Assembly: GCA_964493655.1 (NCBI GenBank)
Contig: CAZBOY010000001.1
Span: forward strand, 1 to 58,772
Source of the DNA: Candidatus Woesearchaeota archaeon
Lineage (GTDB): Archaea; Nanobdellota; Nanobdellia; Pacearchaeales; GW2011-AR1
Direction of reading: 5' to 3'
Length of the DNA: 58,772 nucleotides
A program made the position numbers and the translations under genes. This document shows, piece after piece, positions 811-36,632 of this stretch; position 1 is the first letter of the stretch, and each line of letters opens with the position of its first letter. The notes beneath the pieces were generated by a model. It was not told where the DNA came from, did no database searches, and saw only the letters and a list, made by a program, of their open reading frames with translations.

Positions 811-850
811 TTCACCAATCAAAAGTAGTAAGAAGAGTTTATAAGAAATA
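811..850 (+). promoter_or_regulatory. shared promoter-proximal motif, copy 1 (TTCACCAATCAAAAGTAGTAAGAAGAGTTTATAAGAAATA)
   Basis: The block AAAAGTAGTAAGAAG followed by a TTTATAA TATA-like box ends ~23 nt before ATG 868. The same block lies upstream of 1758, 7050 and 9726. Confidence 0.6.
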
Positions 851-867
851 ATGACGACAAAGTTAAA

Positions 868-1656
868 ATGAGGTGTGTAGCTATCTTGCTCTTAGCAGTT
901 GTGTTTTTATCTTCTTTTGTTTATGCTGGGGTTTATATTAATGAGGTTGAAGCGAATCCTGAAGGAAGCGAGACTAATGAATGGGTTGAACTTTATAATT
1001 CAGGAAATGTTGATATTGATTTAAGTGAATGGAAAATAATTGATGTCGGAGGAATTGAAGATGTTATTCCTTTTGGAACAATTATTCTAACAAAAGGTTT
1101 TTGGGTTTTTACAGAAGATATTTCTTCATTAAGTATAGATAACTCAAATGAACAAATAACCTTAAAAGATAAAACTGGAGAAATTATTGACATAACCCCC
1201 TTACTTAATGATGGGGGGGATGATAATAACACAAATCAACGAATCCCCGACGGAGTAGATAATTGGGAATTTAAAGAACAAACAAAAGGCAAATCAAACT
1301 CACCCCAAGAAAGCACAATAAGTTTTTCTTTATCTCCATTGATTTTTGGAAGTGTGAGCCAAGGGGGTTCGGTTATTAAAAATTCAGTAATAACATTACA
1401 TGAACCAAATAATGTTGATTTATCTTTTGAGATAAGTTTAGAAGAAGGAAGTATTTTTGAAAATCTTTTTTTTGATTTAAATGGCGACGATGTTTCTTCA
1501 GATGATGAACAATTAGATGAAACTCTTAATTATGATGTTGATGATTTAGAAGGAGAGTTTGAGATTAATTTGCCTGTGAGATTGAATATTCCTTTTGGCA
1601 GTGTTGCTGGAAAACATAATGGAAAAATTACATATACTGCAACTGAAAAAATATAA
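868..1656 (+). CDS. secreted lamin-tail-domain (LTD) protein with C-terminal beta-rich domain
   Basis: Signal peptide MRCVAILLLAVVFLSSFVYA. LTD signature INEVEANPEGSETNEWVELYNSG..IDLSEWKI. The C-terminal ISFSLSPLIFGSV... domain resembles the domains in 1758..2822 and 8694..9158. Confidence 0.8.
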   Translation: MRCVAILLLAVVFLSSFVYAGVYINEVEANPEGSETNEWVELYNSGNVDIDLSEWKIIDVGGIEDVIPFGTIILTKGFWVFTEDISSLSIDNSNEQITLKDKTGEIIDITPLLNDGGDDNNTNQRIPDGVDNWEFKEQTKGKSNSPQESTISFSLSPLIFGSVSQGGSVIKNSVITLHEPNNVDLSFEISLEEGSIFENLFFDLNGDDVSSDDEQLDETLNYDVDDLEGEFEINLPVRLNIPFGSVAGKHNGKITYTATEKI

Positions 1657-1696
1657 TTCATCAACTAAAAGTAGTAAGAAGAGTTTATAAAAAATA
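1657..1696 (+). promoter_or_regulatory. shared promoter-proximal motif, copy 2 (TTCATCAACTAAAAGTAGTAAGAAGAGTTTATAAAAAATA)
   Basis: Starts directly after the stop of 868..1656. A TATA-like box lies ~65 nt before ATG 1758, which has a GGGGGT Shine-Dalgarno-like site. Confidence 0.55.
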
Positions 1697-1757
1697 AAAC
1701 AATAAAAAAGTATTCCAATATTATACAATATTGAAAGGGGGTAAAAGGTAAAATAAA

Positions 1758-2822
1758 ATGAAAAAAATTTTAGTTTTTTTGGTTATGTTTGGGTTGATGT
1801 TTGGGTTGGTTGGGGCGGTTGATACAACTGCTATTACAACTTCTCGTTCTGCATCTGGTTTTGCTTTATCTCAGATTTCAGATGTCTGGGCAAATGGGGG
1901 TTCAAATTCTGCGAGATTATTTGCAGCATTAATAACTGGGCCAACAAATGAGGGAAGAGTTAGAATTGATTTTAATGAAGTGGTAACTTTGAATGATATT
2001 GAAAATATTTCCTGGATGCAATATGTAACAGAAGGTTATGCTTCTCATCTTGATTTATTTTTAGATATAGATTTTGATGGTGATGCCGACGAATCTTTAA
2101 ATTTTGAATATGATAAGGTTGCTCATCCTTCAGATCAATCAGTTGGAACTATGAATTATGCAAGAGATTCCTGGATAAATACTTTTGACGATAAAGGGAT
2201 TATTAATAATGGAGCACGTGCATGGTTAAATTCTGGAAGTCCAGGTTGTGGAAATAATGCCTATGATTGTGGAGGATTTATAGATGGATTGTTATCTGAA
2301 TGGAAAGCTGGAACTGCAGACGATTTAAGAATAAATGGTTCTACACGAGTTCTTGGATTTGAAATTGAAGTAGATGGTTGGATTGTAGAATCAGAAGCAT
2401 ATATAGATGATATTGTGATTAATGGAGTAGTTGTCGAAGCTTTTGAAGAATCACAAATTATAGAAGTAGATATTGATGAAGATATTTCTCTTTCAATAAG
2501 TCCTTCTACACTTGATTTTGGTGTTTTGAAAGCAGGAACAATTGATAATCCTGGTCAAAATATTATTTTTGATGCAACAGGAAGTAACACCGATGTTACT
2601 GTTGAAGTTCAAGGTGTAACTGGTTTTCCTTTTGAAACTGGATTAAAGTTTAATAGTCTTGTTCCAATAGGACAATCTGAAACTTTAAATTGTGTTGTTG
2701 TTGGTACTGCTTGTACATATAGTTCAGTAGAATGGACAACATCATTAACAATTCCAGCAGGAACTGTTTCAATGAATTATCAGGGAACTGTTGTTTACTT
2801 AGTTACTGGACCAACACCTTAA
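1758..2822 (+). CDS. secreted protein; C-terminal domain is paralogous to the 8694..9158 product (candidate surface-fibre or sheath subunit)
   Basis: Signal peptide MKKILVFLVMFGLMFGLVGA. The C-terminal ISLSISPSTLDFGVLKAGTIDNPGQNIIFDATGSN...GTVVYLVTG aligns with VVITPTNVEFGEVTAGSIDNLAKNGNIIIDPTGSN...GVVTYTITG. Confidence 0.75.
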   Translation: MKKILVFLVMFGLMFGLVGAVDTTAITTSRSASGFALSQISDVWANGGSNSARLFAALITGPTNEGRVRIDFNEVVTLNDIENISWMQYVTEGYASHLDLFLDIDFDGDADESLNFEYDKVAHPSDQSVGTMNYARDSWINTFDDKGIINNGARAWLNSGSPGCGNNAYDCGGFIDGLLSEWKAGTADDLRINGSTRVLGFEIEVDGWIVESEAYIDDIVINGVVVEAFEESQIIEVDIDEDISLSISPSTLDFGVLKAGTIDNPGQNIIFDATGSNTDVTVEVQGVTGFPFETGLKFNSLVPIGQSETLNCVVVGTACTYSSVEWTTSLTIPAGTVSMNYQGTVVYLVTGPTP

Positions 2823-2823
2823 A

Positions 2824-3516
2824 ATGAAAAACTTATTTATTATTTTTTTAATTATAATGATGGTGGGGCTAGCTGGGGCTAGTGGATTCTCACCATCAAG
2901 TTTAGTTTTTAATCTTGAACCAAATCAAGAAGAATGTCAGATGATAATTATAACTTCTGCTTCAGAAACAATTTCTGTTAATGACTATTGGGCTGAAAAT
3001 GAAAATGTGACTTGGAAAGTTAGTTTATTTAATTCAAGTGCAGGAGAACATAATTTGAATATTATTTATGATAACTCCTTGGGGGAAGGGGAGAGAGAAT
3101 TACAAGTTTGTCTTTCTGGTTCTGAATTAGGAGAGTATCATGGAGTTATAATAATGAAAGAAGAACAGCAGGGAAATTCTGTTGTTCAAATGGGGGTTTG
3201 GTTGAAGGTTGTTATTGAAGAAGTTGAGGAGATAGTTGAAGAACCTGTGGTTAATAATGAGGGTTCTGGAGGGAGGACTTCTCAAACTATATTTATCCCA
3301 AAGGAAAATACAACAGTTGAAACTAGTGGGGATTTAGAAAATCTTGATGAAGTAGAATCTGAAAGTTCGGATATTGAAAGTTCTGAAGAAGAATTTAAAT
3401 CTGGGATTACTGGGGCGGCGGTGGGTTTGTTAGATAGTAAAGGCTCTGTTGCAATTATTAGTTTAGTTGTTTTAGTTGTGATTGCAGTTGGAGTTTATGT
3501 AAGGAGAAATAAATGA
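2824..3516 (+). CDS. membrane-anchored beta-sandwich-like protein (signal peptide, Ig/PapD-like-looking domain, acidic linker, C-terminal TM)
   Basis: Starts 1 nt after the upstream stop. FSPSSLVFNLEPNQEECQMIIITS..., an E/S-rich linker, and a TM helix followed by RRNK. Close paralog of 9160..9684. Confidence 0.75.
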   Translation: MKNLFIIFLIIMMVGLAGASGFSPSSLVFNLEPNQEECQMIIITSASETISVNDYWAENENVTWKVSLFNSSAGEHNLNIIYDNSLGEGERELQVCLSGSELGEYHGVIIMKEEQQGNSVVQMGVWLKVVIEEVEEIVEEPVVNNEGSGGRTSQTIFIPKENTTVETSGDLENLDEVESESSDIESSEEEFKSGITGAAVGLLDSKGSVAIISLVVLVVIAVGVYVRRNK

Positions 3517-5903
3517 AGAAAATATTATTAATATCTTTTGGAATAATCCTAATTAGTTTGCTCTTTGCTTCAGCATTAGGAAAACATCAAAATGTTTATG
3601 TTTATGTTGCAAATGAAACACATGTTCAGAATGAAACATTTCCAAGCTGTGCATTTGCATCTGACAACCTAACACTAAGTTCAAATATAATCTGGGGTGA
3701 GTGCACTCAAGAAGTGTGGGCAAGTGTAAAAATTGGCTCGCAAGATGGGGAAAACTTCACAGCAACTATAGATGGGGGAAATAAATATTATGTAATAATC
3801 CCTCCTAATTTTTCAAATTCCGGAACAAATTTAATTTTTCAATTTTTTGCAAAAGATTGCTTCAACTTTACATATAATGGAAGCGAGAATTCTTTTTACA
3901 TAAGGAATAATACAAAATTAAATGTTAATCCTGAAAACCCAGATGGACTAAATAACTGGTATGTTAACGAACCGATATTTTCTTTAGAAAAAGATGAATC
4001 TGGAAATGATAGTTATTATCAATGGGATTCTACAGGACCTATTCCATATAGTTCTCCTTTTGGTTTAGAAGATATTCCAAACTCCCCACCAAAAGAATCT
4101 GCAGGAACCCTAGAATTAAATTGGTGGACAGATTTTGGTGAGTGTGGAAACGAAAGTAAACAAACTAAAGTTTTTTATGTTGATTTAATCAATCCTCAAA
4201 TTGATAATATTTTTCCCTTAGGAAATTTAATTAATAATCTTAATCCAGTTATCTCTGCTTATTTAGACGAAGTTTATGAAAGTAATTCAGGGATTAATAG
4301 AGACAGTGTTGTAATGAAACTTGATGGTGTGGAGGTTTCTGCAATTGTTGAAAAGCAAGGTTCTATTGATGCAGTCGTTAGTTATCAAACAGAAGAACTA
4401 TCCCAAGGAATTCATGGGGTAGAGATTTATGTTGAAGATAATGCCGGCAGAATAAATCAAACATCCTGGGAATTTTTTGTTATCTTAACCCCAATTTATG
4501 ACTTGCAGATTTTTTCACCAGTAGAAGATATCTATGATTCAAAAAGAATCCAGTTTAACATAAGTTCTGAAAAAGAATTAGATTTAATTGAATATATTGA
4601 TTGGTCTTCTAATAATCCGCGATGGAAAAGATTATGCTCTGATTGTGATGAATATGGATATGATAAAGCAAGAACTAAAACTTTTACAGACGGAGAGCAT
4701 AGTATAACAATTAGAACAATAGATTTGTTTGAGCAGATAAATGAAAAAAATATAAGTTTTTTTATTGATTCCAGAGCACCAAGAGTCTCAAAAACAGAAC
4801 CAAAGAGAGGATTTGCTTCTGGCTTGTTTGAAATTGAGTTTGAAGAAGATAATCCTAAAGAGATGTGGTTAAATTATGGAAATAGTTTTGGGGAGGGTTA
4901 TAGAAATGCTGAAGTTGATTTGAGTGAGTGTGTTATGGATAGAAGATATACTCAGTGTAATATCACAGTGAACTTATCAGATTATGATGGGCAAGAGATT
5001 GAGTATTGGTTTAATATTAGTGATAAGGCGGGGAATACAGATGAATCAAGGCATGAAGATTTAGATGTTGATGTTTCATTTCCAAAAATTAATAATCTTA
5101 CTTATGAAATAGATGGTAAATCTGTTTATTTTATTATTAATATTACTGAACCATATTTAGATGAGGTTAGTTACTTTTATCATGATGGCCAAGGAAGAGA
5201 AAGAAGATTATGTTCTAGATTAAAAGAGGGAATTTGCGAGAAAAAAGTATCTTTTGGAGAAGGTTATCATAATATCACAATTAATGTTATTGATGAAGTT
5301 GAGAATAAGGTTAGTGAGAATGTTTCATTATTTATTGATTCAAAACCCCCAAGAATCTCAAAAACAGAACCAAAGAGAAATCAAGTTACAAATGGCTCTG
5401 ACTTTTTGATAAAATATACAGAGGATAATCTAAAAGAAGTTTCAATTAGTTTTAATCCTGAAACTCCCTTAGAGCAATGTGATGAATCTGGAAGAAATGT
5501 GGAGTGTTTATTTGATTTAAATTTAAATGCTTATGACGGAGAGTGGGTTGAATACTGGTTTAATGTTTCTGATGAGGTTAATACTGTTGGTTCAAGAATC
5601 ACAAGAGTTTTTGTTGATACAACATCTCCTGAATTGAATTTGATTATGCCTTTGGGGGAAGTTTATGGTACAAGAAGAATTAATTTTATGATAGATGTAA
5701 GTGAAGAGGTTAAACTTGAATATAGGGATGAAAAAGATAGCAACCCAAGATGGAGAACTTTATGCACAAGATGTGAGGAATATGGAATCTCAAGAACAAA
5801 AACAAAATCCTTTAAAAAAGGAGAACATGAATTAATAATTCGGGCAAGTGATAAAGCAGGGAACACTGACGAAGAGATAATTAATTTTGAAGTTGACTAT
5901 TAG
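3513..5903 (+). CDS. large secreted multi-domain (tandem Ig-like) surface protein
   Basis: ATGA overlap with the upstream gene and a signal peptide. Internal duplications: IDSRAPRVSKTEPKR / IDSKPPRISKTEPKR, and NPRWKRLCSDCDEYG / NPRWRTLCTRCEEYG. Confidence 0.8.
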   Translation: MKKILLISFGIILISLLFASALGKHQNVYVYVANETHVQNETFPSCAFASDNLTLSSNIIWGECTQEVWASVKIGSQDGENFTATIDGGNKYYVIIPPNFSNSGTNLIFQFFAKDCFNFTYNGSENSFYIRNNTKLNVNPENPDGLNNWYVNEPIFSLEKDESGNDSYYQWDSTGPIPYSSPFGLEDIPNSPPKESAGTLELNWWTDFGECGNESKQTKVFYVDLINPQIDNIFPLGNLINNLNPVISAYLDEVYESNSGINRDSVVMKLDGVEVSAIVEKQGSIDAVVSYQTEELSQGIHGVEIYVEDNAGRINQTSWEFFVILTPIYDLQIFSPVEDIYDSKRIQFNISSEKELDLIEYIDWSSNNPRWKRLCSDCDEYGYDKARTKTFTDGEHSITIRTIDLFEQINEKNISFFIDSRAPRVSKTEPKRGFASGLFEIEFEEDNPKEMWLNYGNSFGEGYRNAEVDLSECVMDRRYTQCNITVNLSDYDGQEIEYWFNISDKAGNTDESRHEDLDVDVSFPKINNLTYEIDGKSVYFIINITEPYLDEVSYFYHDGQGRERRLCSRLKEGICEKKVSFGEGYHNITINVIDEVENKVSENVSLFIDSKPPRISKTEPKRNQVTNGSDFLIKYTEDNLKEVSISFNPETPLEQCDESGRNVECLFDLNLNAYDGEWVEYWFNVSDEVNTVGSRITRVFVDTTSPELNLIMPLGEVYGTRRINFMIDVSEEVKLEYRDEKDSNPRWRTLCTRCEEYGISRTKTKSFKKGEHELIIRASDKAGNTDEEIINFEVDY

Positions 5904-5963
5904 AAATTAGGAAGATTGAAAGGACAGAAAACCTTAAAAAGCATTGTTTCATAATTGGTACAT

Positions 5964-6521
5964 ATGGTTCAAAATAAAAACATAGAGTTAGAGATAATTT
6001 TAAATCTTATAAAAGATAAATCTCATTTAAGAGAAATCTCCAGGTCTATTGGAAAACCCCCTTCAACAGTTTTGAGAAATCTTAATGAACTTGTAAAAGA
6101 AAATATTATTGATTATCGGCAAGAAGGTAAAAATAAAATCTTTTTTATAAAAAATAATTTAAAATCTAAAAATTATGTTTATTCTGCAGAAATTTATAAG
6201 CTGAACAAATTGCTGAAAAAAAATCCTGAATTAGCTATAATCTTCGAGGACATAAAAAATTCTTTTTCAAAAGGCATGATAATTTTATTCGGCAGTTATG
6301 CCAAGGGAAACCCAAAAACAGATAGTGATATTGATGTATATTTAGAAACAGAGGATAATAAGATAAAAAATAAAATAAAAGAATTGAACCAGAAACTAAG
6401 TGTAAAAATTGGAGAGTTTGATTCAACTTCATTATTAATAAAAGAAATAATTAAGAATCATGTTATTGTGAGGGGGGTAGAGGAATATTATGAACAAAAT
6501 AATTTTTTTAAAGAAACTTAA
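5964..6521 (+). CDS. MNT-type nucleotidyltransferase antitoxin with N-terminal wHTH
   Basis: LFGSYAKGNPKTDSDIDVYL (GS..x..DxD minimal nucleotidyltransferase motif). HTH-like LREISRSIGKPPSTVLRNLNELV. ATG at 5964 within the listed ORF. Confidence 0.8.
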   Translation: MVQNKNIELEIILNLIKDKSHLREISRSIGKPPSTVLRNLNELVKENIIDYRQEGKNKIFFIKNNLKSKNYVYSAEIYKLNKLLKKNPELAIIFEDIKNSFSKGMIILFGSYAKGNPKTDSDIDVYLETEDNKIKNKIKELNQKLSVKIGEFDSTSLLIKEIIKNHVIVRGVEEYYEQNNFFKET

Positions 6522-6984
6522 ATATGCAGGAAAATTAGAACTTGTTGAACCTTCTGAAGAAATGAAATTGTCTTATTTGACCAAAGCTGAAAATTGTCTC
6601 AAATCTTCTAAGATTCTATTTCAAAATGAGCTTTATGAAAACTCCACATCAGAGGCATATTATTGCATTTATAATTCCTTACTTGCTTTGTTATTTAAAA
6701 TAGGAATTAAATCTGAAAACCATTCTGCATCTATTTTCTTATTTGACAAACTATTTGATAATAAAGAATTGGTAAAAATAGTATTATGGGCAAAAAAAGA
6801 AAGAATAGATAAACAATATTATGTTGAAACTCAACAAATTCTCAAGGCAACAAAAGAATCTTGCAATGAAATGATCCTAAAGGCAGAAGATTTTCTGTTA
6901 AGATTAAGAGTTATTGTGAGTGAACTAAACAATGAAAAAATAATAGGGATTAGAAAACTTTTTGAGGAATTATTAGGGAATTAA
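6490..6984 (+). CDS. HEPN-domain protein, partner of the MNT gene
   Basis: Overlaps the MNT gene by 32 nt. All-helical ~160 aa protein with a HEPN-like layout (AENCLKSSKILF...ENHSASIF...KKERIDKQYY). I did not see a classical Rx4-6H motif. Confidence 0.6.
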   Translation: MNKIIFLKKLKYAGKLELVEPSEEMKLSYLTKAENCLKSSKILFQNELYENSTSEAYYCIYNSLLALLFKIGIKSENHSASIFLFDKLFDNKELVKIVLWAKKERIDKQYYVETQQILKATKESCNEMILKAEDFLLRLRVIVSELNNEKIIGIRKLFEELLGN

Positions 6985-6989
6985 ATTTT

Positions 6990-7028
6990 TTCACCAAACA
7001 AAAGTAGTAAGAAGTATTTATAAAAAAA
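6990..7028 (+). promoter_or_regulatory. shared promoter-proximal motif, copy 3 (TTCACCAAACAAAAGTAGTAAGAAGTATTTATAAAAAAA)
   Basis: Same AAAAGTAGTAAGAAG block plus a TATA-like box ~25-30 nt before ATG 7050. Confidence 0.6.
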
Positions 7029-7049
7029 GGATGTGTAGTAAAAAAGAAA

Positions 7050-8114
7050 ATGAAAAAGGTGATGGTTGTTTTCTTGCTTGGAATATTTTTAATCAGCTTG
7101 GTTTCTGCAACAAATGTGGCTTATGTTTTGCGAAATCCTGAAAGAGCTGATGCTGGATTTTTGAATGCTTTTAGTGAACTTGGGTTGAATGTTGATTTGA
7201 TTAATGATGGGGATGTTAGGGTTACGGATTTTTCTGGTTATGATTTGATTTTTGTTGGCGACGAGAGATTGAGAAATGCTAAGTATCTTCCGATTGATTC
7301 TGTTTCAAATGTGATTGTAAATGGATATTATGGAAAATTATTTGGCTTGCTTGAAAAAGGTAGAATGTCAAAACTTGCTGCAAATCATCCTCTTAAAATT
7401 AAACAAAATGGCGACGTTGTAAAAGCATATACCACTGCAGAATATCGTGGGAGGAGAATAAATCTTCCTTATTATTTTATCCCAGAGAAATATAAAAAAG
7501 AAAACTCGCAATCAATTGCGACAACTTTTGTAGGATATAAAAAAGAGCTAGGGGATGTTATTTCTTATCTTGATGGGGATGTAAGAAAATGTTTTTTTGG
7601 AATAACTAAAACAAAATATTGGACAGAGGATTCCCGAGAATTGTTTAAAGATTGTGTTGGTTTTGCTATTAGTGGGGAGAATTCTGGAGATGACGACGAT
7701 GAAATAGAAGATGGTATTCATGATGTAGAAATTGTAGAAGATTATGTAAATAGTGTGAATGGGATAAGGATTAAAAATGATGAAACCGGAGAATATTTGT
7801 TAGATGAGATTTCTTCTTTAATGTGTGGAGAAAAATATAAGGTTGATTTTAAGACTTTGAATGTTGGTGATTATACTGAAGATGTTTTAATTTCTGGGTC
7901 TGTTAATGGGTTTGAATGGGGTAGGACTAAAGAAGGGCTTGAATCTGGAAAATCAACAACAACTGGTTCAAAAACAATTACAATAAATGAAGATTTTCCA
8001 ATTGGAACTTATACAATTGAGATTCAAGCATTAATTGAAGAAGATGTAACACCTGAAAATAATATTCGTTCTCGAGATGTTAATGTTGTTTGTCTTGCGA
8101 AAATGGATCAATAA
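7050..8114 (+). CDS. secreted protein: conserved N-terminal alpha/beta-like domain plus C-terminal CARDB-like domain
   Basis: Signal peptide. The N-terminal ~200 aa are paralogous to the N-terminus of 9726..13223 (VAYVLRNP...DLIFVGDERLRN...SKLAANHPL). The C-terminal HDVEIVEDY...PENNIRSRDVNVVC is CARDB-like. Confidence 0.75.
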   Translation: MKKVMVVFLLGIFLISLVSATNVAYVLRNPERADAGFLNAFSELGLNVDLINDGDVRVTDFSGYDLIFVGDERLRNAKYLPIDSVSNVIVNGYYGKLFGLLEKGRMSKLAANHPLKIKQNGDVVKAYTTAEYRGRRINLPYYFIPEKYKKENSQSIATTFVGYKKELGDVISYLDGDVRKCFFGITKTKYWTEDSRELFKDCVGFAISGENSGDDDDEIEDGIHDVEIVEDYVNSVNGIRIKNDETGEYLLDEISSLMCGEKYKVDFKTLNVGDYTEDVLISGSVNGFEWGRTKEGLESGKSTTTGSKTITINEDFPIGTYTIEIQALIEEDVTPENNIRSRDVNVVCLAKMDQ

Positions 8115-8145
8115 GGATTTTATTAATCTTCAAAAGATTTCTGCT

Positions 8146-8250
8146 TAGGAGCTGACTAATTTAATCTTTATAGTGCCTGATGAAATTTTTCCATATCTTA
8201 AATAGGGTTGGGAAAAATTTCCGCAGAAGCTTCCTAAAGCATTATCACTA
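8146..8250 (+). repeat. nested-palindrome hairpin element, copy 1
   Basis: Stem 8182-8192 GAAATTTTTCC pairs with 8211-8221 GGAAAAATTTC; 18-nt loop starts ATATCTTA. Right flank is CGCAGAAGCTTCCTAAAGCATTATCAC. Confidence 0.75.
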
Positions 8251-8320
8251 AAACTACATCGAGTATTTTGCCAATTCATAAACCCTAATTTTTATTAATA
8301 ACTAACTTATCTTCAACTGG

Positions 8321-8425
8321 TTAGCTGACTGTTTTTTGTTGGTGGTTGTTGCGGAAATTTACCCTTATCTTATTTTTTGTTGGGGGTAAATTTCACCAGA
8401 GGTTTTGAAGAGCACTAAGCTTAAT
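8321..8425 (+). repeat. nested-palindrome hairpin element, copy 2 (in tandem with copy 1)
   Basis: Stem 8354-8364 GAAATTTACCC pairs with 8384-8394 GGGTAAATTTC; loop starts TTATCTTA. Flanks are TTAGCTGACTG...TTGGTGG and TTTTGAAGAGCACTAAGC. Confidence 0.75.
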
Positions 8426-8693
8426 ACTAACACAAAAAGATTTTTTAAATAATAAATCTCATAGAAAACTTTCCTTTAAACTTAGTCAGAAGGATTATTT
8501 ATTTATTCAGTTTTTGGTCTTTTGGAGGGATGTCTTTGGGAGAATCATTAACTTGTGCTGTGGGTTAATTGGGTTAATTCATCGAAATTTAGTAGTGCTA
8601 TAAATTTATATATGTAACTATTTCTAAATTAAAACAGAAAATGGAACTGACAAAGGAATTTATGATAAATAGTATTGAAAGGAGGTATAATAA

Positions 8694-9158
8694 ATGAGAA
8701 AAATTTTAGTTTTATTGATGACTCTTAGTATTTTAACTTTGATGTTTTCTTTATCTAATGTTATTGCCTTAAGCCAAGGTTTAAGTGTTACAATTAAGGA
8801 GGATTTAAATGTTGTAATCACTCCTACAAATGTTGAATTTGGAGAAGTAACTGCAGGAAGTATAGATAATCTTGCTAAGAACGGAAACATTATTATTGAC
8901 CCAACTGGAAGTAATGTTAAAACTATTTATGTTTATGTTTCTGTTGATGAAATAGAACCTTTTAAAACCGGGCTTAAGTTCGATGGAAGATTAGCAGATG
9001 GATTAAATTATGATTTGATATGCATAGAAAATCCATGGGAACACATTCCAAAAATTATTAAACCAACATTGGATGTTCCTTTAGGAGCATATGCAGGTAC
9101 AATATCTGGGGTAGTTACTTATACAATTACTGGAAGTTCGCCACCAGTTCATACATAA
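8694..9158 (+). CDS. small secreted beta-rich protein, paralog of the C-terminal domain of 1758..2822 (candidate fibre subunit)
   Basis: Strong SD (GGAGGT) 8 nt upstream, signal peptide, and the shared FGxVxAGSIDN...DPTGSN...GxVTYTITG motifs. Confidence 0.8.
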   Translation: MRKILVLLMTLSILTLMFSLSNVIALSQGLSVTIKEDLNVVITPTNVEFGEVTAGSIDNLAKNGNIIIDPTGSNVKTIYVYVSVDEIEPFKTGLKFDGRLADGLNYDLICIENPWEHIPKIIKPTLDVPLGAYAGTISGVVTYTITGSSPPVHT

Positions 9159-9159
9159 A

Positions 9160-9684
9160 ATGAAAACATTATTTTTTATTTTTTTAATTATAATGATGGT
9201 GGGGCTAGCTGGGGCTAGTGGATTCTCACCATCAAGTTTGGTTTTTAATCTTGGACCTAATCAAGAAGAATGCCAAATAATAACAATCACCTCTAATTCA
9301 CTGACGATAAATGTGGATGATAAATGGGCTACTAATAGTGATGTTGAATGGAAAGTAAGTTTGTTTAATTCAAGTGCAGAAGAACATAATCTAAATATTA
9401 ATTATGATAACTCCTTGGGGGAAGAGGAGAGAGAATTACAAGTTTGTCTTTCTGGTTCTGAATTAGGAGAATATCATGGAGTTATAATAATGAAAGAAGA
9501 ACAGCAGGGAAATTCTGTTGTGCAAATGGGGGTTTGGTTGAAGGTTGTGGTTGCAGAAAATATTGATAAAAATATTGATAAAACAATTATCTTGGGGGTG
9601 CTCTTTATTTTAATTATGATATCTTTTTTGTTTTTGATTAAAAAGAAAAGTAAGGGTGTAAGTTATTTCATCAAAACCCAGTAG
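9160..9684 (+). CDS. membrane-anchored beta-sandwich-like protein, paralog of 2824..3516
   Basis: Starts 1 nt after the upstream stop. A 62-bp run is identical to 2842-2903, and ~200 bp (9349-9548) is near-identical to 3013-3212. The C-terminal TM anchor differs. Confidence 0.8.
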   Translation: MKTLFFIFLIIMMVGLAGASGFSPSSLVFNLGPNQEECQIITITSNSLTINVDDKWATNSDVEWKVSLFNSSAEEHNLNINYDNSLGEEERELQVCLSGSELGEYHGVIIMKEEQQGNSVVQMGVWLKVVVAENIDKNIDKTIILGVLFILIMISFLFLIKKKSKGVSYFIKTQ

Positions 9685-9705
9685 TAAGACATGTTTATAT
9701 ATAGA
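9667..9705 (+). promoter_or_regulatory. shared promoter-proximal motif, copy 4, more diverged (TTCATCAAAACCCAGTAGTAAGACATGTTTATATATAGA)
   Basis: Overlaps the stop codon of 9160..9684. A GTAGTAAGA core plus a TATA-like box lie ~25 nt before ATG 9726. Confidence 0.45.
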
Positions 9706-9725: not shown

Positions 9726-12700
9726 ATGAAAAAGCAATTGGTATTTTTAATTTTAGGTTTGATTTTGATTAGTTCTGTTTCTGCTGCAGATGTTGCTTAT
9801 ATTTACAGAAGCTCTTCAATGGTTGACGACAATGTCTTAGATGTTTTTTCTGGTTTGCATTTAAGTGTTGATTTAATCAATGAAGATACTCTTCCAAAAG
9901 ATTTTTCAAATTATAAATTTCTTTTTATTGGAGATGAGAGTTTCAGAAATGAAGAAAACATTCCGGTGGATAAATATCCTTCAATTATTACAAGTTATTC
10001 TTTTGGAAAAGAGTTTGGTTTAACTGATGCTGATGGGGTTTCAAAACTTGCGGCTAATTCTCCTCTCCAAGTAAAAAAAGATAATCAGGCAATTCAGGTT
10101 TATACTCAAGCAAAATATAGTTTAGGAGGTATTGCAATTCCTTATTATTTTTTAGATGATCATAATAAAGCTCCTCAGATGCAATCTGTTGCAAGAACTT
10201 ATACTGGGATTAATCAAGAAAATGATTTCGGGGATGTAATTAGTTATGCTGGTCCAGGTGCAGATTTACTTAATGGAAATGAACTTGATAGTAAGCTGTG
10301 CTTTTTTGGAATAATTGAAAGTGACTACTGGACACCTGCTGCTCGTGAGTTGTTTGAAGATTGTGCTGGTTTTGTTGGAATAACTTGTGAGGGGGATAAT
10401 GATTGTCCTGATGATGAAGAGCTAGACAAATTCTGTAGAAATGATGATGTTTATGTTGAAGTTGAAAAATATGATTGTAAAAACGACGGGACTTTTAATT
10501 CTGAGTGTGTTTCTAATACAGATGATGAACTAGAAAAGAATTGTGATTACTTTTGTTATGATGCTGAATGTGTAAGGTGTAATTTTGATTACAATTGTGA
10601 CGACGGAAATATCCGGACTGAAGATAGTTGTGTAAATCCTAAGACAACACAGAGTTATTGTGAATATGGGGATATAACTTGTTTTAATGATAATGAATGC
10701 GACGATGAAAATAATTATACTAAAGATACTTGTTTAAGCCCTGGAACTGTGAACAGTGAATGTAAGCATGAAAACATAATTTGTTTTGAAAATGAAGATT
10801 GCAATGATGAAAATGATTATACAAAAGACCTATGTAGAAATCCCGGGACAGTTCAATCTCAATGTGAATATCAAGATATAGGTTGTCTTAATGATTTTGA
10901 TTGTGAAGATAATAATGAAAGAACTTTTGATGAGTGTGTAAACCCTGGAACTTCAATCAGCGAATGTAGAAATACTGAAATGAATTGTTTGAATGATGCA
11001 GATTGTGGGATTACCGGATTTGTTGGAGAAGAATTCTGCAACCATAATAATGTTTGGAAAACAAAACAAATTGCTCTTTGTCATAATCCTGCGACAATCT
11101 TGAGCTCTTGTGCTATTGCTGTTTATCCTGAATTAATCCAAGATTGCGATGATGGAGATATTTATACTATTGATAGTTGTGTAGAAGATGGAATTGCTCA
11201 TTGCGAGCATAAATTTTTAGAATGTTTAATAGATTCTGATTGCGACGAAGATTATTATACTAACTGGGAATTTTCTTGTGAACAGGACGATGTTATAAAA
11301 ACAAGAGAGCTTCATGATTTTTTCTGTTGTTTTGGTGAATGTTCTTTTTGTCAAGATCCTTGTGAAATAAATCAGAATACTTGTAAGGAATCAATAACTC
11401 CTGAAACAGAGTTTGTTGCTAATTGTGAATATGGATGTGATGATGGTGAATGTTTGCAAGGATGTTATGAAGATTCTGATTGTGGAGAGGTTCATTATGG
11501 GGAAAGATATTGTGAAGGAAGCAGTTCTATTTTAGAAGAATTCACACCAACTTGTACTGAAGGTGAATGTGGAGAAGAATTAAATCTTATTACTAATATT
11601 TGTTTGTATGGATGTGATGATGGAAAATGTAATGAGCCAGAATGTTCTGTTGCTGAAGATTGCGGGGATGTTGTTGAATCTCTTGAATGTGTTGGAGATG
11701 ATTTAGTTAAAACAATTACAACACCTATTTGTATTGAAGGTCTTTGTGGTGAAGAAACTTCTAATGAAACAACTTATTGTGAATATGGATGTGCAAATGA
11801 CGAATGTATAGAGCCTCCAATTGAATGTAATGCAAATCTAGATTGTGGATTAAATCAATTTTTAAATCAGGAATTTTGCCAGAACAATGATGTGTTTGAT
11901 AATTTTATAGTTTATAGTTGTGTAAATCCTGGACAAGTAAATAGTTATTGTGAAGAAGCGATTAATCCTCAATTAATTGAGGACTGCGGTGATGATTCTA
12001 ATGGTGAGTGGGGAAATTATTGTAAGGGTGATGATGTTTGGAGAACAAGAGATAATATAGATAAGGGATGTGTTTCTGGAGAATGCTTTTCAGAAACAGT
12101 TGTTGAAGATGAATTTCTTGTTGCTTGTGAATATGGATGTGATAATGGAAGTTGTATTGAAGGAACTCATGATGTTGCTTTAGTTGATTTTACTAATTCT
12201 GTTAATGGAATCGGTATTCAAGATTTAGGAGGAAATTATATTTTAGGAAATACTGCAACATTGAATTGCAATCAAGAATATAAAATATGGATTGATGTTG
12301 AGAACAAAGGAGATTTTGGAGAAGCAGTTGAATTTGAAAGTTTTGTTGATGGCTTGTTATTTAATCATCTTCAGGTTGATAATCTTCTTCCACAAGAGAA
12401 TAAATTAAAATATAGAACTGTTAATTTTTCATTAGAAGAAGGGGCTTATACAATCTCTGTTGAAGCTATTATAAACTCTGATGATAATTTAGAGAATAAT
12501 CTTGTTCAGAGAAATATAGAAATTGTTTGTGAAGAACCACCAATTGTATGTGAAAGAGATTCTGACTGTGGAACAAACCAATGGATTGGGGATGCACTTT
12601 GTTCAAATAATGATGTTAACCAAAACTTTAAAGTTTTCACATGTTTAAATCCTGGAACAATTAATTCTCAATGTGTTGATCAGGTTGATTTGATTTTAAA

Positions 12701-13223
12701 AAATGATTGCGGTGATGATTCTAATGGTGAATGGGAAAACTATTGTAAAGCAGATGATGTTTGGAGAACAAGAGATAATATAGATAAAGGATGTGTATCT
12801 GGAGATTGTTATTCTGAGGAATCTACTCAAGATGAATTTCTTGTTGCTTGTGAATATGGATGTGCAAATGACGAATGTATAGAGCCTCCAATTGAATGTA
12901 ATGCAAATCTAGATTGTGGATTAAATCAATTTTTAAATCAGGAATTTTGCCAGAACAATGATGTGTTTGATAATTTTATAGTTTATAGTTGTGTAAATCC
13001 TGGACAAGTAAATAGTTATTGTGAAGAAGCGATTAATCCTGAACTTATTGAGGATTGTGGTGATGATTCATTTGGAAATACTTATTGTATTGGAAAGGAT
13101 ATTTATCAAAATCAAACAGTAGTTAGTTGTGCTGATGCAAATTGTTTTAGTGAAATAAATCCTGTATTAGTTGGAAGTTGTGACTACAGATGTGCAAATG
13201 GGGGTTGCATAGCTTGTGTTTAA
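9726..13223 (+). CDS. giant secreted Cys-rich modular surface protein (1165 aa) with an internal CARDB-like domain
   Basis: Signal peptide and an N-domain paralogous to 7050..8114. Tandem 34-aa four-Cys modules (C-x5-C-x10-C-x9-C, e.g. CFNDNECDDENNYTKDTCLSPGTVNSECKHENII). Larger duplicated Cys-rich units. CARDB-like HDVALVDF...ENNLVQRNIEIVC. Confidence 0.85.
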   Translation: MKKQLVFLILGLILISSVSAADVAYIYRSSSMVDDNVLDVFSGLHLSVDLINEDTLPKDFSNYKFLFIGDESFRNEENIPVDKYPSIITSYSFGKEFGLTDADGVSKLAANSPLQVKKDNQAIQVYTQAKYSLGGIAIPYYFLDDHNKAPQMQSVARTYTGINQENDFGDVISYAGPGADLLNGNELDSKLCFFGIIESDYWTPAARELFEDCAGFVGITCEGDNDCPDDEELDKFCRNDDVYVEVEKYDCKNDGTFNSECVSNTDDELEKNCDYFCYDAECVRCNFDYNCDDGNIRTEDSCVNPKTTQSYCEYGDITCFNDNECDDENNYTKDTCLSPGTVNSECKHENIICFENEDCNDENDYTKDLCRNPGTVQSQCEYQDIGCLNDFDCEDNNERTFDECVNPGTSISECRNTEMNCLNDADCGITGFVGEEFCNHNNVWKTKQIALCHNPATILSSCAIAVYPELIQDCDDGDIYTIDSCVEDGIAHCEHKFLECLIDSDCDEDYYTNWEFSCEQDDVIKTRELHDFFCCFGECSFCQDPCEINQNTCKESITPETEFVANCEYGCDDGECLQGCYEDSDCGEVHYGERYCEGSSSILEEFTPTCTEGECGEELNLITNICLYGCDDGKCNEPECSVAEDCGDVVESLECVGDDLVKTITTPICIEGLCGEETSNETTYCEYGCANDECIEPPIECNANLDCGLNQFLNQEFCQNNDVFDNFIVYSCVNPGQVNSYCEEAINPQLIEDCGDDSNGEWGNYCKGDDVWRTRDNIDKGCVSGECFSETVVEDEFLVACEYGCDNGSCIEGTHDVALVDFTNSVNGIGIQDLGGNYILGNTATLNCNQEYKIWIDVENKGDFGEAVEFESFVDGLLFNHLQVDNLLPQENKLKYRTVNFSLEEGAYTISVEAIINSDDNLENNLVQRNIEIVCEEPPIVCERDSDCGTNQWIGDALCSNNDVNQNFKVFTCLNPGTINSQCVDQVDLILKNDCGDDSNGEWENYCKADDVWRTRDNIDKGCVSGDCYSEESTQDEFLVACEYGCANDECIEPPIECNANLDCGLNQFLNQEFCQNNDVFDNFIVYSCVNPGQVNSYCEEAINPELIEDCGDDSFGNTYCIGKDIYQNQTVVSCADANCFSEINPVLVGSCDYRCANGGCIACV
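11778..11969 (+). repeat. perfect 192-bp intragenic direct repeat, copy A
   Basis: Identical base for base to 12849-13040 when read by eye. Encodes CEYGCANDECIEPPIECNANLDCGLNQFLNQEFCQNNDVFDNFIVYSCVNPGQVNSYCEEAINP. Confidence 0.9.
12849..13040 (+). repeat. perfect 192-bp intragenic direct repeat, copy B
   Basis: Lies 1071 bp downstream of copy A. The neighbouring duplicated units are clearly more diverged (roughly one difference per 8-10 nt by eye). Confidence 0.9.
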
Positions 13224-13224
13224 G

Positions 13225-14301
13225 ATGGTAAATGATTATTCAAGAAGAGCATTTGTTAGTAGCATATTAGGGGCTGTATGTGGGGGGTGTGCAAAAATCG
13301 CCGGAGATTATATGAAAGATCCAGAAGCCACTCCAGGTATTTTAAGAGAGGGTATTGCAAGACCTTATAATGCAGTAAGTGTTGAAGTTCCTACAAATTC
13401 TGAAGATGCTAGAAATAAAATGAATGAAGGTTTAGGGAGAATTCCACAAAATCTTGTTAGACTTGTTGATAGTGTTACAAGTATAGTGGGAATTCGAGGA
13501 GGAAGATATTGCGGTTTAGTTTCAACAACTGAAAGATTTAATCCACCAAAAGGAAAGGAATTTGAATATAGAGTAAGAGCAATTGTAACTCAACCAGGAA
13601 GGGGTATTGCAGATGTTTTAGAATGTGCTTCTAATTTAATTGGAGATATTGTTAAACCAGGTGTACAAGCTGTGAATTTGGGTATGGTTCTTCCCCTATC
13701 TTCAAATAATGTTAATGTTGATGCATGGACAGATGTGGTTAAAGGGCCATTGAGAGCAGGATTATATTTAGGACAGGAAATGGCTGGAGTTGGATTGCCT
13801 GCTTCTTGGAAATCTAGTGTTTTTGGTATGAAAAAATGGGCAGGATTTGATTTAAGTGAAGAAGATGAAAGAACTCATCAAGAATTACAAATGAAATTTA
13901 AAAGATTATATGAAGGAGAAATAAAACCAGATATTGCAAGGGTTATTGTAAATGCAATACCTGCTGTTGGAAATAGTTTAGATAGTTTATTTTGGAGAAC
14001 AAATGTAAGGGGTAATAGTGGGACATACCAAATTGTTGTTAATTTCATGGAAAATGGAATACCTGCTCCAGTGCATGTTGGAGATGAATCATTTGCAGAT
14101 GATAAAAAATGGTATGGTAAGGATAAAGATCCTACAAAAGCTCCTGGAGTTTTTATAAATAATGAATTCAGACCGGCAAAATCTGTTTTATTAGAATTAA
14201 TAAAATTAGCTCCATCTTTTGCTGGTTCTGGTGGTGGGGGTGGTGGTGGCGCAAGTCCTGCTAGTGGTGGTGGTCGTTCAGGAGGTTCTGGAGGAAGATG
14301 A
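13225..14301 (+). CDS. protein of unknown function with a twin-arginine-like N-terminus and a Gly-rich C-terminal tail
   Basis: ATG lies 1 nt after the stop of the giant gene. N-terminus MVNDYSRRAFVSSILGAVCGGCA; C-terminus SGGGGGGGASPASGGGRSGGSGGR. Confidence 0.7.
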   Translation: MVNDYSRRAFVSSILGAVCGGCAKIAGDYMKDPEATPGILREGIARPYNAVSVEVPTNSEDARNKMNEGLGRIPQNLVRLVDSVTSIVGIRGGRYCGLVSTTERFNPPKGKEFEYRVRAIVTQPGRGIADVLECASNLIGDIVKPGVQAVNLGMVLPLSSNNVNVDAWTDVVKGPLRAGLYLGQEMAGVGLPASWKSSVFGMKKWAGFDLSEEDERTHQELQMKFKRLYEGEIKPDIARVIVNAIPAVGNSLDSLFWRTNVRGNSGTYQIVVNFMENGIPAPVHVGDESFADDKKWYGKDKDPTKAPGVFINNEFRPAKSVLLELIKLAPSFAGSGGGGGGGASPASGGGRSGGSGGR

Positions 14302-15257
14302 AAAAAACAATAACAATTTTATTGCTGGTATTATTTTTAAGTTTAAACTTAGTAATTGCCGATAGATATGAGGATAATAATATTAAATATGGAAAAATTG
14401 ATTCTGGCGGAAACTTAATTGAAACTTCAACTCCTATCAATGGTGCGAGTGTTTTAGGATTTGTTTGCAGTTCTGCAGATTGTGGAAGTGTGTCAGGAAG
14501 ATTATGGTCAAATATACTGAATACAAATACTGATTTTATTCAATTGGTTTATCCATATGAATTATTATCTAATTTTGGTTATGGGGTTTACTTTTTTAAA
14601 GATGGATATATTCCTTATGAAGTTGATGTAGATTGGTGGGGAACAAATTCCGGAGATCCTGTAGGACCTTATGATAATTATTTATCTAAAAAAGAAATGT
14701 GCGTTTCGGATATAAGTAATTTAGGAGTTGCTCTTGATAATCATAATGTAGATGTGAATCTTAAAGTTAAATCTCCTATTGATAATTCAGGTCCTTTAGA
14801 TTATATTCCTTCTGAACTTAAAGAACATTATAGTGCAGATGTAGGAGTTGAACTTGATGTTTTGAAAGATGATTCTTCATATTATGAAAAAACAGAATCC
14901 GTAGATATTCCATTTTCTGAAAAAAAGAATGTTGGTTTTTCTTTTGCTGCTGAACCTGGAGATTATGAATTAGTTGTTTCTACTTTTATTGGTGATGACA
15001 AATGTTTAAGTTATGAACCTGATGAACAAATTAAGAAGTTTACAATTTGCTATGTAAATAATGATTGTGGTTCTTCAGCATGTATTGAAAACGGAAACTA
15101 TTGCGGAGTTGACGGAAACATCTATCATGATTATGCAGGTTTAAAATGTGAAAATCCTGGAACACTAAATGGGGTATGTTCGCAAATTTCTGAAAGCAGA
15201 AAAATAGGGACTTGTTTATATGGTTGTGGAAGTGGAAAATGTTTGGGTAAGGGGTAG
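14298..15257 (+). CDS. secreted protein with a C-terminal Cys-rich module like those of the giant protein
   Basis: ATGA overlap with the upstream gene and a signal peptide. C-terminus CYVNNDCGSSACIENGNYCGVDGNIYHDYAGLKCENPGTLNGVCS...CLYGCGSGKC. Confidence 0.75.
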   Translation: MKKTITILLLVLFLSLNLVIADRYEDNNIKYGKIDSGGNLIETSTPINGASVLGFVCSSADCGSVSGRLWSNILNTNTDFIQLVYPYELLSNFGYGVYFFKDGYIPYEVDVDWWGTNSGDPVGPYDNYLSKKEMCVSDISNLGVALDNHNVDVNLKVKSPIDNSGPLDYIPSELKEHYSADVGVELDVLKDDSSYYEKTESVDIPFSEKKNVGFSFAAEPGDYELVVSTFIGDDKCLSYEPDEQIKKFTICYVNNDCGSSACIENGNYCGVDGNIYHDYAGLKCENPGTLNGVCSQISESRKIGTCLYGCGSGKCLGKG

Positions 15258-30560: not shown

Positions 30561-30730
30561 AAAAAACTAATAAAATCTGTATATATAAGCATTATTGTAA
30601 TTAATAACAACAATAATGATGTGGAATTCACAAATGAGTGATTATGAAAAAGTTATTTTTTCAATCTTAAACCATGAATAGATAAAAATTTATTAATTAT
30701 AAAATTGCTAATAGAATTATAGAACATAGA

Positions 30731-30822
30731 TTATTTATCTTGGCGGCTTTCGCGGAAATTTATCCCGAGTATTTTAAGATAAGGATAAATTTCTTCAGGA
30801 GTTTTGCAGAGCAGTAGCATAA
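30731..30822 (+). repeat. nested-palindrome hairpin element, copy 3
   Basis: TTATTTATCTTGGC GGCTTTCGCG, then stem 30755-30765 GAAATTTATCC pairing with 30783-30793 GGATAAATTTC, then TTCAGGAG TTTTGCAGAGCAGTAGCATAA. The loop ends TAAGATAA. Confidence 0.8.
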
Positions 30823-30866
30823 ATCTCATTTAAAGATTTTTATTAGAGTAATAAAGGATATATATT

Positions 30867-32592: not shown

Positions 32593-32660
32593 AATTTATT
32601 TCTTGTGATGACTATAAAAAAATTTAAATTTATTAATCTAATAAATCATCGCTTTGGGGG

Positions 32661-32758
32661 AATAGGTTATTTATCTTGGTGGCTTTTACGGAAATTTATC
32701 CTTGTCTATAACATACTTGGGATAAATTTCTTCAGAAGTTTTGCAGAGCATTATCATA
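32661..32758 (+). repeat. nested-palindrome hairpin element, copy 4
   Basis: GGTTATTTATCTTGGT GGCTTTTACG, then stem 32691-32701 GAAATTTATCC pairing with 32720-32730 GGATAAATTTC, then TTCAGAAG TTTTGCAGAGCATTATCATA. The listed ORF 32605..32787 across it is probably spurious. Confidence 0.8.
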
Positions 32759-32851
32759 GCCTTAATACAAAAGATTTGTTTGATTAATAAATTGAGAAAA
32801 ATTAAAACCCACAAACTTAAAAACTAATAATTCTAATTATAAAAGAAGAAG

Positions 32852-33472: not shown

Positions 33473-33529
33473 TTTTTGATTCTCTGACTAAAGTTAATTT
33501 ATTAATTAAATTACTTCTAAAATTGTGAG

Positions 33530-33629
33530 AAGTCTATTACTTCCCTTGGTAACTTTTGAAGAAATTTAGCACAATAATTTTTTTAAGATGGTGCTAAATT
33601 TCCGCAAAGGATTTTTAGAGCAGTAAAGG
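33530..33629 (+). repeat. nested-palindrome hairpin element, copy 5
   Basis: CCCTTGGT AACTTTTGAA, then stem 33561-33572 GAAATTTAGCAC pairing with 33591-33602 GTGCTAAATTTC, then CGCAAAGGA TTTTTAGAGCAGTAAAGG. The loop ends TAAGATG. Confidence 0.75.
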
Positions 33630-33743
33630 TAAAGCTCATCTCAAGAATTTTTGTCAATTAATAAATTTGAGAATTTATACCCAATAAATCAAAATTCAAC
33701 AAACATCCACAAACCTTTAAAACCCCCCCGCATTCTAATTTTC

Positions 33744-35814: not shown

Positions 35815-35851
35815 TTATTTTTATTAATCCCAAAACTATTCATCGACTTAT

Positions 35852-35950
35852 GAGCTGACTGATTTGTCTTGGCAACTCTTGAAGAAACCCAAACTTATCT
35901 TATATGATTGTTTGGATTTCCACAAAACCTTTTCAGAGCATTATGATAAA
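35852..35950 (+). repeat. nested-palindrome hairpin element, copy 6
   Basis: GAGCTGACTGATTTGTCTTGGC AACTCTTGAA, then stem 35884-35894 GAAACCCAAAC pairing with 35910-35920 GTTTGGATTTC (one C.A mismatch), then CACAAAACC TTTTCAGAGCATTATGATAAA. The loop starts TTATCTTA. Confidence 0.75.
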
Positions 35951-36043
35951 CACTCCACAAAAAGGTTTATTAATTAATAATTTAATTTTTATTATCTAGA
36001 TTATTTTCAAAACATATTTATACCTTAAAAACAACAGAATAAT

Positions 36044-36484: not shown

Positions 36485-36488
36485 GAGA

Positions 36489-36579
36489 TTTATGCTTAAT
36501 GCTCTGAAAAGCTTTTGTGGAAATTTATCCTTACTTTAATATACTTGAGATAAATTTCTTCAGAAATTGCCAAGGTTAC
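36489..36579 (-). repeat. nested-palindrome hairpin element, copy 7 (outer flanks inverted on the + strand)
   Basis: TTATGCTTAATGCTCTGAAAA GCTTTTGTG, then stem 36519-36528 GAAATTTATC pairing with 36548-36557 GATAAATTTC, then TTCAGAAA TTGCCAAGG. Lies between the convergent 3' ends of 36044..36484 and gyrA. Confidence 0.8.
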
Positions 36580-36632
36580 AATCATCAACCCCAAATATTA
36601 AAAATTTAAATTTACGAATATGTTGTCTTCTG

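Follow-up and report, generated by a model that had tools for sequence, protein, structure and literature searches.

A conserved bipartite box upstream of surface-protein genes in a Woese-/Pacearchaeota-type archaeon: a putative transcription-factor site

The window analysed here is the whole of contig CAZBOY010000001.1, a stretch of 58,772 nucleotides from a Candidatus Woesearchaeota archaeon. Near its start it carries genes and operons for secreted proteins (genes are named below by their first position), and upstream of these stand five copies of a short sequence, referred to here as the box. Each copy consists of two conserved parts that precede, and abut, a B recognition element (BRE) and a TATA box. 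The comparisons presented below suggest that the five copies are likely to represent a lineage-conserved bipartite upstream element, a putative transcription-factor site that would define a lineage-wide surface-protein regulon.

The window has a GC content of 31.7% and encodes S6e, aIF2-gamma, an aIF5B-type IF2 and gyrase; its sole match in an Rfam scan is a tRNA-Asp. The sequencing runs that contain matching DNA are lake-water metagenomes, and the nearest relatives are metagenome-assembled genomes (MAGs) of Woesearchaeota, Pacearchaeota and Nanoarchaeia. These relatives, together with S6e, aIF2-gamma and aIF5B, identify the source as a DPANN archaeon; it is a Woese-/Pacearchaeota-type lake-water archaeon with TATA/BRE promoters. 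The Woese- and Pacearchaeota are abundant, uncultured organisms with tiny genomes, thought to live attached to hosts, and to our knowledge nothing is known of their gene regulation.

The skeleton TTCAYC-N8-GTAGT-N8-TTTATA matches the window without mismatch at five places, beginning at 811, 1657, 6990, 8578 and 9667 (Table 1). All five matches are on the forward strand, against a chance expectation of 0.06, and none of 100 shuffles reached five. Scanning both strands of the 58.8-kb window with a position weight matrix (PWM), built from 67 non-redundant instances of the box, returned these five copies and nothing else, with scores of 19.5-46.3 bits; the best shuffle scored 3.7. A first-pass annotation of this DNA had reported four copies. 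All four are where it placed them, but the total is five, the additional one being the diverged copy at 8578. Since this copy stands upstream of gene 8694, the accompanying statement that 8694 lacks the motif has to be withdrawn. The 15-mer AAAAGTAGTAAGAAG, described as identical in three copies, does occur exactly at 821, 1667 and 7000. A further match to the 15-mer, with two mismatches, at 20906 was put down to chance: it falls inside a coding sequence, with no TTCAYC and no TATA box.

Alignment of the window copies shows homology limited to approximately 38 nt, with sharp ends on both sides. Copy 5 overlaps the final codons and stop codon (TAG, 9682-9684) of gene 9160. Two copies are followed by longer leaders, at 1690-1757 and 8611-8693: one of 68 nt from TTTATA to the ATG at 1758 (copy 2, with the Shine-Dalgarno (SD)-like sequence GGGGGT) and one of 83 nt to the ATG at 8694 (copy 4, with SD-like GGAGGT). 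The diverged variant in copy 4, AGTAGTGCTATA, is also present at two loci of other genomes (L080 and L085). At the non-conserved positions, copies 1-3, which drive non-homologous genes, have a likeness to one another of 0.55-0.73, compared with a mean of 0.38 between genomes; this suggests some local homogenisation or recent promoter copying.

Table 1. Coordinates of the box copies, their target genes and a nearby hairpin family in the window
Feature	Coordinates	Strand	Description
Box copy 1	811-845	+	36.1 bits; ATG of 868 24 nt after TTTATA, leaderless
Copy 1, box 1	811-816		TTCACC
Copy 1, box 2	824-832		AGTAGTAAG
Copy 1, BRE region	831-837		
Copy 1, TATA	838-845		TTTATAAG
Box copy 2	1657-1691	+	43.5 bits; TATA 1684-1691; directly after gene 868 stop codon
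Box copy 3	6990-7024	+	46.3 bits; TATA 7017-7024; ATG of 7050 27 nt on, leaderless
Box copy 4	8578-8612	+	19.5 bits; diverged: TTCATC-N7-AGTAGTGCT-N5-TTTATATA
Box copy 5	9667-9701	+	45.9 bits; TATA TTTATATA 9694-9701; ATG of 9726 26 nt on, leaderless
Gene 868	868-1656	+	secreted, 262 aa, Lamin Tail Domain (LTD); C-terminal part related to 8694 protein
Operon 1758	1758-5903	+	three signal-peptide proteins
1758 operon, gene 1	1758-2822	+	354 aa
1758 operon, gene 2	2824-3516	+	230 aa, C-terminal transmembrane (TM) segment
1758 operon, gene 3	3513-5903	+	796 aa, Big_13 Ig-like repeats
Gene 7050	7050-8114	+	secreted, 354 aa, DVAYIYR family
Operon 8694	8694-9684	+	8694-9158 and 9160-9684
8694 protein	8694-9158	+	154 aa; paralogue of C-terminal part of 1758 protein
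9160 protein	9160-9684	+	174 aa; first 133 aa 86% identical to those of 2824 protein
Operon 9726	9726-15257	+	9726-13223, 13216-14301 and 14298-15257; start/stop codons overlap between genes
9726 protein	9726-13223	+	1165 aa, long DVAYIYR-family protein, Cys-rich repeats
Hairpin family copies	8150-8275, 8318-8445, 30715-30840, 32652-32780, 33522-33650, 35850-35975, 36481-36605		dispersed, intergenic, ~100 nt

Upstream of ordinary genes in the window the pattern aAAg-n-TTTATAA is found, with the ATG following some 22-26 nt on; leaderless transcripts are therefore the rule in this organism. The near-leaderless spacing pointed out earlier for the box genes is real (24, 27 and 26 nt for 868, 7050 and 9726), but it is the organism's norm and not specific to these genes. 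For comparison with the box, a generic set of 68 leaderless promoters was drawn from the window and related loci. Its consensus is a BRE, a/c-R-a-A-A-n-n, before TTTAWAWA, and upstream of position 20 these promoters show no conservation, most positions carrying less than 0.15 bit and none more than 0.23.

The logo of the 67 box instances reads tttTTCAYCAR-n3-AA-AGTAGTAAG-a-y-A-n-n-TTTAWATA-n-AA. Outside positions -2 to 38 the information is below 0.15 bit at most positions and the flanks are random; a T at position 47, approximately -10, stands out as the main exception and is probably a proximal promoter element. Positions 21-35 match the organism's generic consensus, a/c-R-a-A-A-nn-TTTAWAWA, as well as its TATA-to-ATG spacing. 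Because they are the same as the consensus of the 68 generic promoters, these positions represent an ordinary BRE/TATA. The element is thus promoter-proximal, as first proposed, its 3' part being a generic BRE/TATA with the ATG spaced as in leaderless promoters. What is specific to the box is confined to positions -2 to 20, tttTTCAYCAR-n3-AAAGTAGTA, which are absent from the 68 generic promoters; the earlier view that conservation exceeds the needs of a basal promoter is upheld by this absence. Tested for an A/T-rich TATA octamer, all copies contain TTTAWATA, and in the leaderless genes the ATG lies 23-27 nt past TTTATA.

The box-specific part is divided into box 1, tttTTCAYCAR, and box 2, AAAGTAGTAAG, with 7 nt between them and 6 nt from AGTAGTAA to TTTAWA. 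Taking the ATG of a leaderless gene as +1, the approximate layout places box 1 at -56 to -49, box 2 at -46 to -35, the BRE at -36 to -30 and the TATA box at -29 to -22. Two bases in the BRE of box promoters are those of the generic BRE, namely G at -6 and A at -3 from TATA. The base at -4, in contrast, is C/T in 78% of box promoters and A in 72% of generic ones. No convincing dyad symmetry or direct repeat was found inside the box on inspection by eye.

The spacing of the parts is rigid. In 544 kb of related DNA, the loci of which were mostly fetched by fixed-spacing patterns, AGTAGTAA occurs at 100 distinct sites; TTCAYC stands exactly 7 nt upstream of 72 of these and TTTAWA exactly 6 nt downstream of 83, with no alternative spacing. 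Where TTCAYC is not matched exactly, most sites still show a variant in the same register, differing by one or two bases. A few promoters (L115 and L122) consist of box 2 and TATA without box 1, an arrangement compatible with a transcription-factor site and with a specialised core promoter alike. A bacterial sigma-70 promoter was considered and rejected, as the organism is archaeal and TTCAYC and TATAA are 23 nt apart; the -35 and -10 hexamers of sigma-70 promoters are separated by 17±1 nt.

When 185,579 species genomes were scanned with the pattern TTCAYCAANNAAAAGTAGTAAG, which does not require a TATA box, 11 loci were recovered, five in DPANN archaea and six in bacteria. In all five DPANN matches a TATA box follows in the same register, and four have a signal-peptide open reading frame (ORF) downstream; at the fifth (L007) the downstream ORF enters a run of N. 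None of the six bacterial matches has an in-register TATA box or a signal-peptide ORF. The pattern TTCAYC-N7-AGTAGTAAG-N5-TTTAWAT yielded 19 genome loci, 17 of them in Woese-, Pace- or Nanoarchaeia, and a further 45 metagenome loci. With the looser TTCAYC-N7-AGTAGT-N8-TTTAWATA, 53 loci were found, of which 33 are in DPANN archaea (Woese-/Pace-/Nanoarchaeia); the 20 bacterial matches lie within coding regions and have no ORF behind them. A scan of viral contigs gave one match, inside a coding sequence and judged to be chance.

Related loci were examined as stretches of at most 8 kb. Throughout these 544 kb the box is never found away from a promoter, chance partial matches aside. In at least two genomes (JAVHOF01 and JBAZYP01) it is carried on different contigs, and hence the regulon reaches beyond one cluster. 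Orthologous proteins of box-bearing genomes are only 37-64% identical and the flanks of the box are random; the box is therefore under selection.

The genes behind the box are, with few exceptions, those of exported proteins. Measured from the end of TTTAWA, the ATG follows at 23 nt in 22 instances, at 24 nt in seven and at 26-27 nt in four; the remaining instances have leaders of 34-107 nt or longer. A hydrophobic, signal-peptide-like N-terminus is predicted for 56 of 62 ORFs behind the box but for only 19 of 57 ORFs of the window (Fisher p = 6.5e-11, a generous value, as the instances are related). The enrichment before signal-peptide genes that the first-pass annotation would lead one to expect is therefore present. 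Most of the apparent exceptions examined turn out to be signal-peptide or membrane proteins after all, obscured by a long leader, a non-ATG start or a contig end. Only one target is clearly cytoplasmic, a GDP-mannose 4,6-dehydratase (L101:2448-3541) with its ATG 23 nt after TATA; it may bring glycan synthesis into the regulon, or its box may be there by chance.

The box precedes genes that are not homologous to one another, and the same families recur behind it across genomes. By BLAST, the commonest target group is the DVAYIYR family, to which 9726 and 7050 belong (26 targets), followed by relatives of the Big_13-repeat protein 3513 (12); there are also LTD proteins resembling 868, proteins of the 1758/8694 type and about 19 small signal-peptide or TM proteins. 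Operons of the 1758/8694 type have a 5' leader of 53-215 nt and an SD-like GGAGGT or GGGGGT in every genome examined (including L012, L014, L057, L092 and L099); most other box targets are leaderless. At one locus (L094:1657-1870) a 213-nt leader before a signal-peptide gene contains a GC-rich, seemingly self-complementary stretch, unusual at 32% GC. In three of the small targets (those of L030, L036 and L065) a charged N-terminus gives way to a long hydrophobic stretch, much as in type IV pilins (class III signal peptide); the match of these pilin-like small targets to the N-terminus of UpsA is weak (E = 9e-4).

As a control independent of the motif, 18 loci were retrieved solely by protein homology to 7050. 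Ten of the 18 have the box in register with at most two mismatches, a further two show box 2 and TATA, and two could not be evaluated. The box thus stands nearly always before signal-peptide genes of recurring families, and before most 7050 homologues, in agreement with the surface-protein regulon put forward at first sight. Not every strong promoter carries it. The genes for S6e, aIF2-gamma and aIF5B in the window are without a box, and since these are ribosomal and translation genes, the box is not a generic feature of strong promoters.

Most of the box-target proteins searched have no sequence match in Pfam, NCBIfam or PDB, and this is also the case for the DVAYIYR family (window positions 7050-8114 and 9726-10400), which is uncharacterised, all of its homologues being annotated as hypothetical. 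An AlphaFold2 model of 7050 (pLDDT 89) predicts a GATase1/flavodoxin-like N-terminal domain and a C-terminal CARDB-like Ig sandwich. Within gene 9726-13223, amid older Cys-rich repeats (11883-13231), the segments 11777-11998 and 12848-13069 form a 222-nt repeat with 98% identity, pointing to recent duplication within this surface protein.

In the mechanism that we propose, a sequence-specific transcription factor would bind boxes 1 and 2, directly next to the BRE on its upstream side, and once bound would control the assembly of TFB, TBP and RNA polymerase. The factor would most probably be an activator that helps to recruit TFB or TBP: the position of the box, its rigid phasing with TATA and the non-consensus base in the BRE are in keeping with an activator like those of the ara-box, EarA or TFB-RF1 systems, discussed below. 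The outcome would be a co-regulated set of cell-surface genes across DPANN archaea of the Woesearchaeota/Pacearchaeota type, which would include the LTD protein, the DVAYIYR family, Big_13-repeat proteins, small TM or pilin-like proteins and the 1758/8694-type operons. Protein binding, the direction of regulation and the transcription start sites are all inferred here from comparative sequence evidence.

Several observations weigh against this proposal. No recurrent DNA-binding neighbour was found, either by tblastn with the ORFs of the window or by all-against-all clustering of 701 ORFs of related loci; the synteny around the boxes comprises surface-protein families and scattered toxin-antitoxin-like genes (RHH, PIN, HEPN/MNT). 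A search for RNA sequencing runs containing the window found none; for two relatives the outcome was the same, the Rifle groundwater metatranscriptomes listed for one (L002) giving no match and no such run being listed for the other (L059). The box is asymmetric and without a dyad, and most archaeal homodimeric transcription-factor sites show one. Among the DVAYIYR-family genes that were retrieved by homology and could be evaluated, approximately a quarter to a third have no recognisable box. Three genes for secreted proteins in the window (16016, 22439 and 23331) also lack it, and the box accordingly marks a subset of surface genes and not secretion as such. The instances are phylogenetically related, so that p-values overstate their independence, and the retrieval of most loci by fixed-spacing patterns biases the spacing and logo statistics; despite this bias, secondary copies and the loci retrieved by homology agree with the spacing. 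Finally, box 2 is contiguous with the BRE, and a paralogue of a basal factor could read it.

This last point leads to a serious rival, in which box 2, and perhaps box 1, would belong to an extended core promoter and be read by a specialised TFB or TBP paralogue in the manner of an alternative sigma factor, which would define a promoter class for surface genes. Box 2 overlaps the 5' edge of the BRE, the G at -6 and the A at -3 are generic BRE positions, and the base at -4 departs systematically from the generic one; the absolutely rigid distance to TATA and the lack of a conserved neighbouring regulator gene would be expected of such a class as well. Box 1, however, lies some 20 nt upstream of the BRE, and we know of no contacts of the TFB core domain that extend so far; nor is any gene for TFB, TBP or a paralogue seen within the window. 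On balance we regard a specialised basal factor as unlikely.

Less probable still is a passive origin of the box, through promoter duplication or gene conversion between paralogues that lie side by side, each having inherited a strong promoter with no dedicated regulator. Some targets are indeed paralogous (7050/9726, 1758/8694 and 2824/9160), and the likeness of copies 1-3 at their free positions is what such copying would leave. Yet non-homologous genes are preceded by the box too, the box is conserved between genomes whose orthologues have diverged as far as described above and whose flanks are random, homology ends sharply at its edges, and highly expressed housekeeping genes are without it. 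Non-homologous targets and cross-genome conservation with random flanks largely exclude passive duplication. The presence of five direct copies in a 9-kb stretch, next to variable surface genes and with some homogenisation within the genome, might also recall a recombination site, that is, a recombinase target, dispersed repeat or mobile 'promoter cassette' that shuffles or phase-varies surface genes. We consider this very improbable: the orientation and the distance to TATA and ATG are constant, the window holds neither inverted copies nor terminal repeats, no recombinase lies nearby, and the related DNA contains no off-promoter box beyond chance partial matches. A dispersed repeat, a miniature inverted-repeat transposable element (MITE) or the end of a mobile element was rejected on the same features, namely the single orientation, the fixed TATA and gene distance, the sharp ends of homology and the lack of inverted copies. 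The transcription-factor site remains the reading that we prefer.

Other elements lie close to the boxes. The two tandem hairpins before 8694 that were recorded in the first-pass annotation are members of a dispersed intergenic family with at least seven copies in the window (Table 1). Its members form a long hairpin with the core GGAAATTTATCC...GGATAAATTTCC and mostly lie right downstream of genes; six of 21 predicted pairs are preserved through compensatory changes, and no Rfam match was found for the family. It could be a terminator-like element, a repeat of the REP (repetitive extragenic palindromic) or MITE type, or a small RNA. Between the two surface-gene modules (5955-6984), an MNT-like gene, encoding a winged helix-turn-helix (wHTH) and a nucleotidyltransferase, overlaps a HEPN gene; the two look like a toxin-antitoxin pair. 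The wHTH-nucleotidyltransferase (5955-6521) was considered as the regulator of the boxes and rejected, as it pairs with HEPN in an MNT/HEPN module and other loci do not share it. Immediately before the first box, 477-692 encodes a 71-aa protein with four cysteines and a weak match to Prok-RING_1, which is not conserved elsewhere.

As a candidate regulatory site, the box provides the first concrete cis-regulatory handle in Woese- and Pacearchaeota. It could serve as concrete bait for finding the regulator, and as a computational marker with which co-regulated surface proteins could be predicted from any MAG of these archaea. Box promoters would also offer a natural test case of activator-dependent promoters in a leaderless, minimal archaeal system. 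The DVAYIYR family, with its predicted GATase-like and CARDB domains, is flagged as a core member of the regulon and worth structural and functional study. A bolder reading, which we hold to be doubtful, is that the box marks a dedicated promoter class for the whole Woese-/Pacearchaeota surfaceome (adhesin-like, pilin-like and envelope proteins, perhaps glycan synthesis), read by a specialised basal-factor paralogue or by a lineage-specific master regulator that senses host contact. If true, this would be a first cis/trans handle on the switching of host-interaction surfaces in ultra-small symbiotic archaea.

Compared with a generic archaeal BRE/TATA, the box is alike at positions 21-35, has positions -2 to 20 in addition and has C/T instead of A at position 24. 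Among known archaeal systems, repressors overlap the promoter or sit downstream of it, and the activators that act upstream of the BRE include Ptr2, TFB-RF1, the ara-box factor and EarA (PMC5512572). The nearest parallel is the ara-box of Sulfolobus, a cis-element that directly precedes the BRE/TATA in arabinose-inducible promoters and was described with an unidentified factor (PMC5512572). Both are short conserved boxes directly upstream of BRE/TATA, common to several promoters and defined by sequence before any factor. A trait of the ara-box itself is that it is thought to offset a weak BRE through TFB recruitment (PMC5512572). The present box differs in its host (DPANN archaea, not Crenarchaeota), in its sequence and in its targets (surface proteins, not sugar use), and it is longer, bipartite and rigidly spaced, with a putative function.

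The EarA boxes of the fla (archaellum) promoter of Methanococcus maripaludis, a promoter that depends on an activator owing to its weak BRE (PMC5512572), are similar in that they lie immediately upstream of the BRE of cell-surface genes. They consist, however, of four repeated 6-bp sites at one operon, whereas the present box is a single bipartite element of about 22 nt at many promoters; there are no archaellum genes among the targets seen, and no EarA-like gene was identified. The sites of TFB-RF1 (PF1088) in Pyrococcus furiosus and the upstream activating sequence of Ptr2 in Methanocaldococcus jannaschii resemble the box in lying upstream of the BRE and in the mechanism proposed, recruitment of TFB or TBP (PMC5512572). 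Those are single- or few-gene systems in which binding has been proven biochemically, while the present case is a putative, lineage-conserved regulon seen in comparative evidence. In the literature searched, we found no report of the box sequence, its lineage, its rigid bipartite architecture or its regulon, nor of relevant DPANN promoter motifs. The box would thus belong to a familiar functional type, that of promoter-proximal regulatory elements, with a sequence, lineage, architecture and regulon that are new to that literature.

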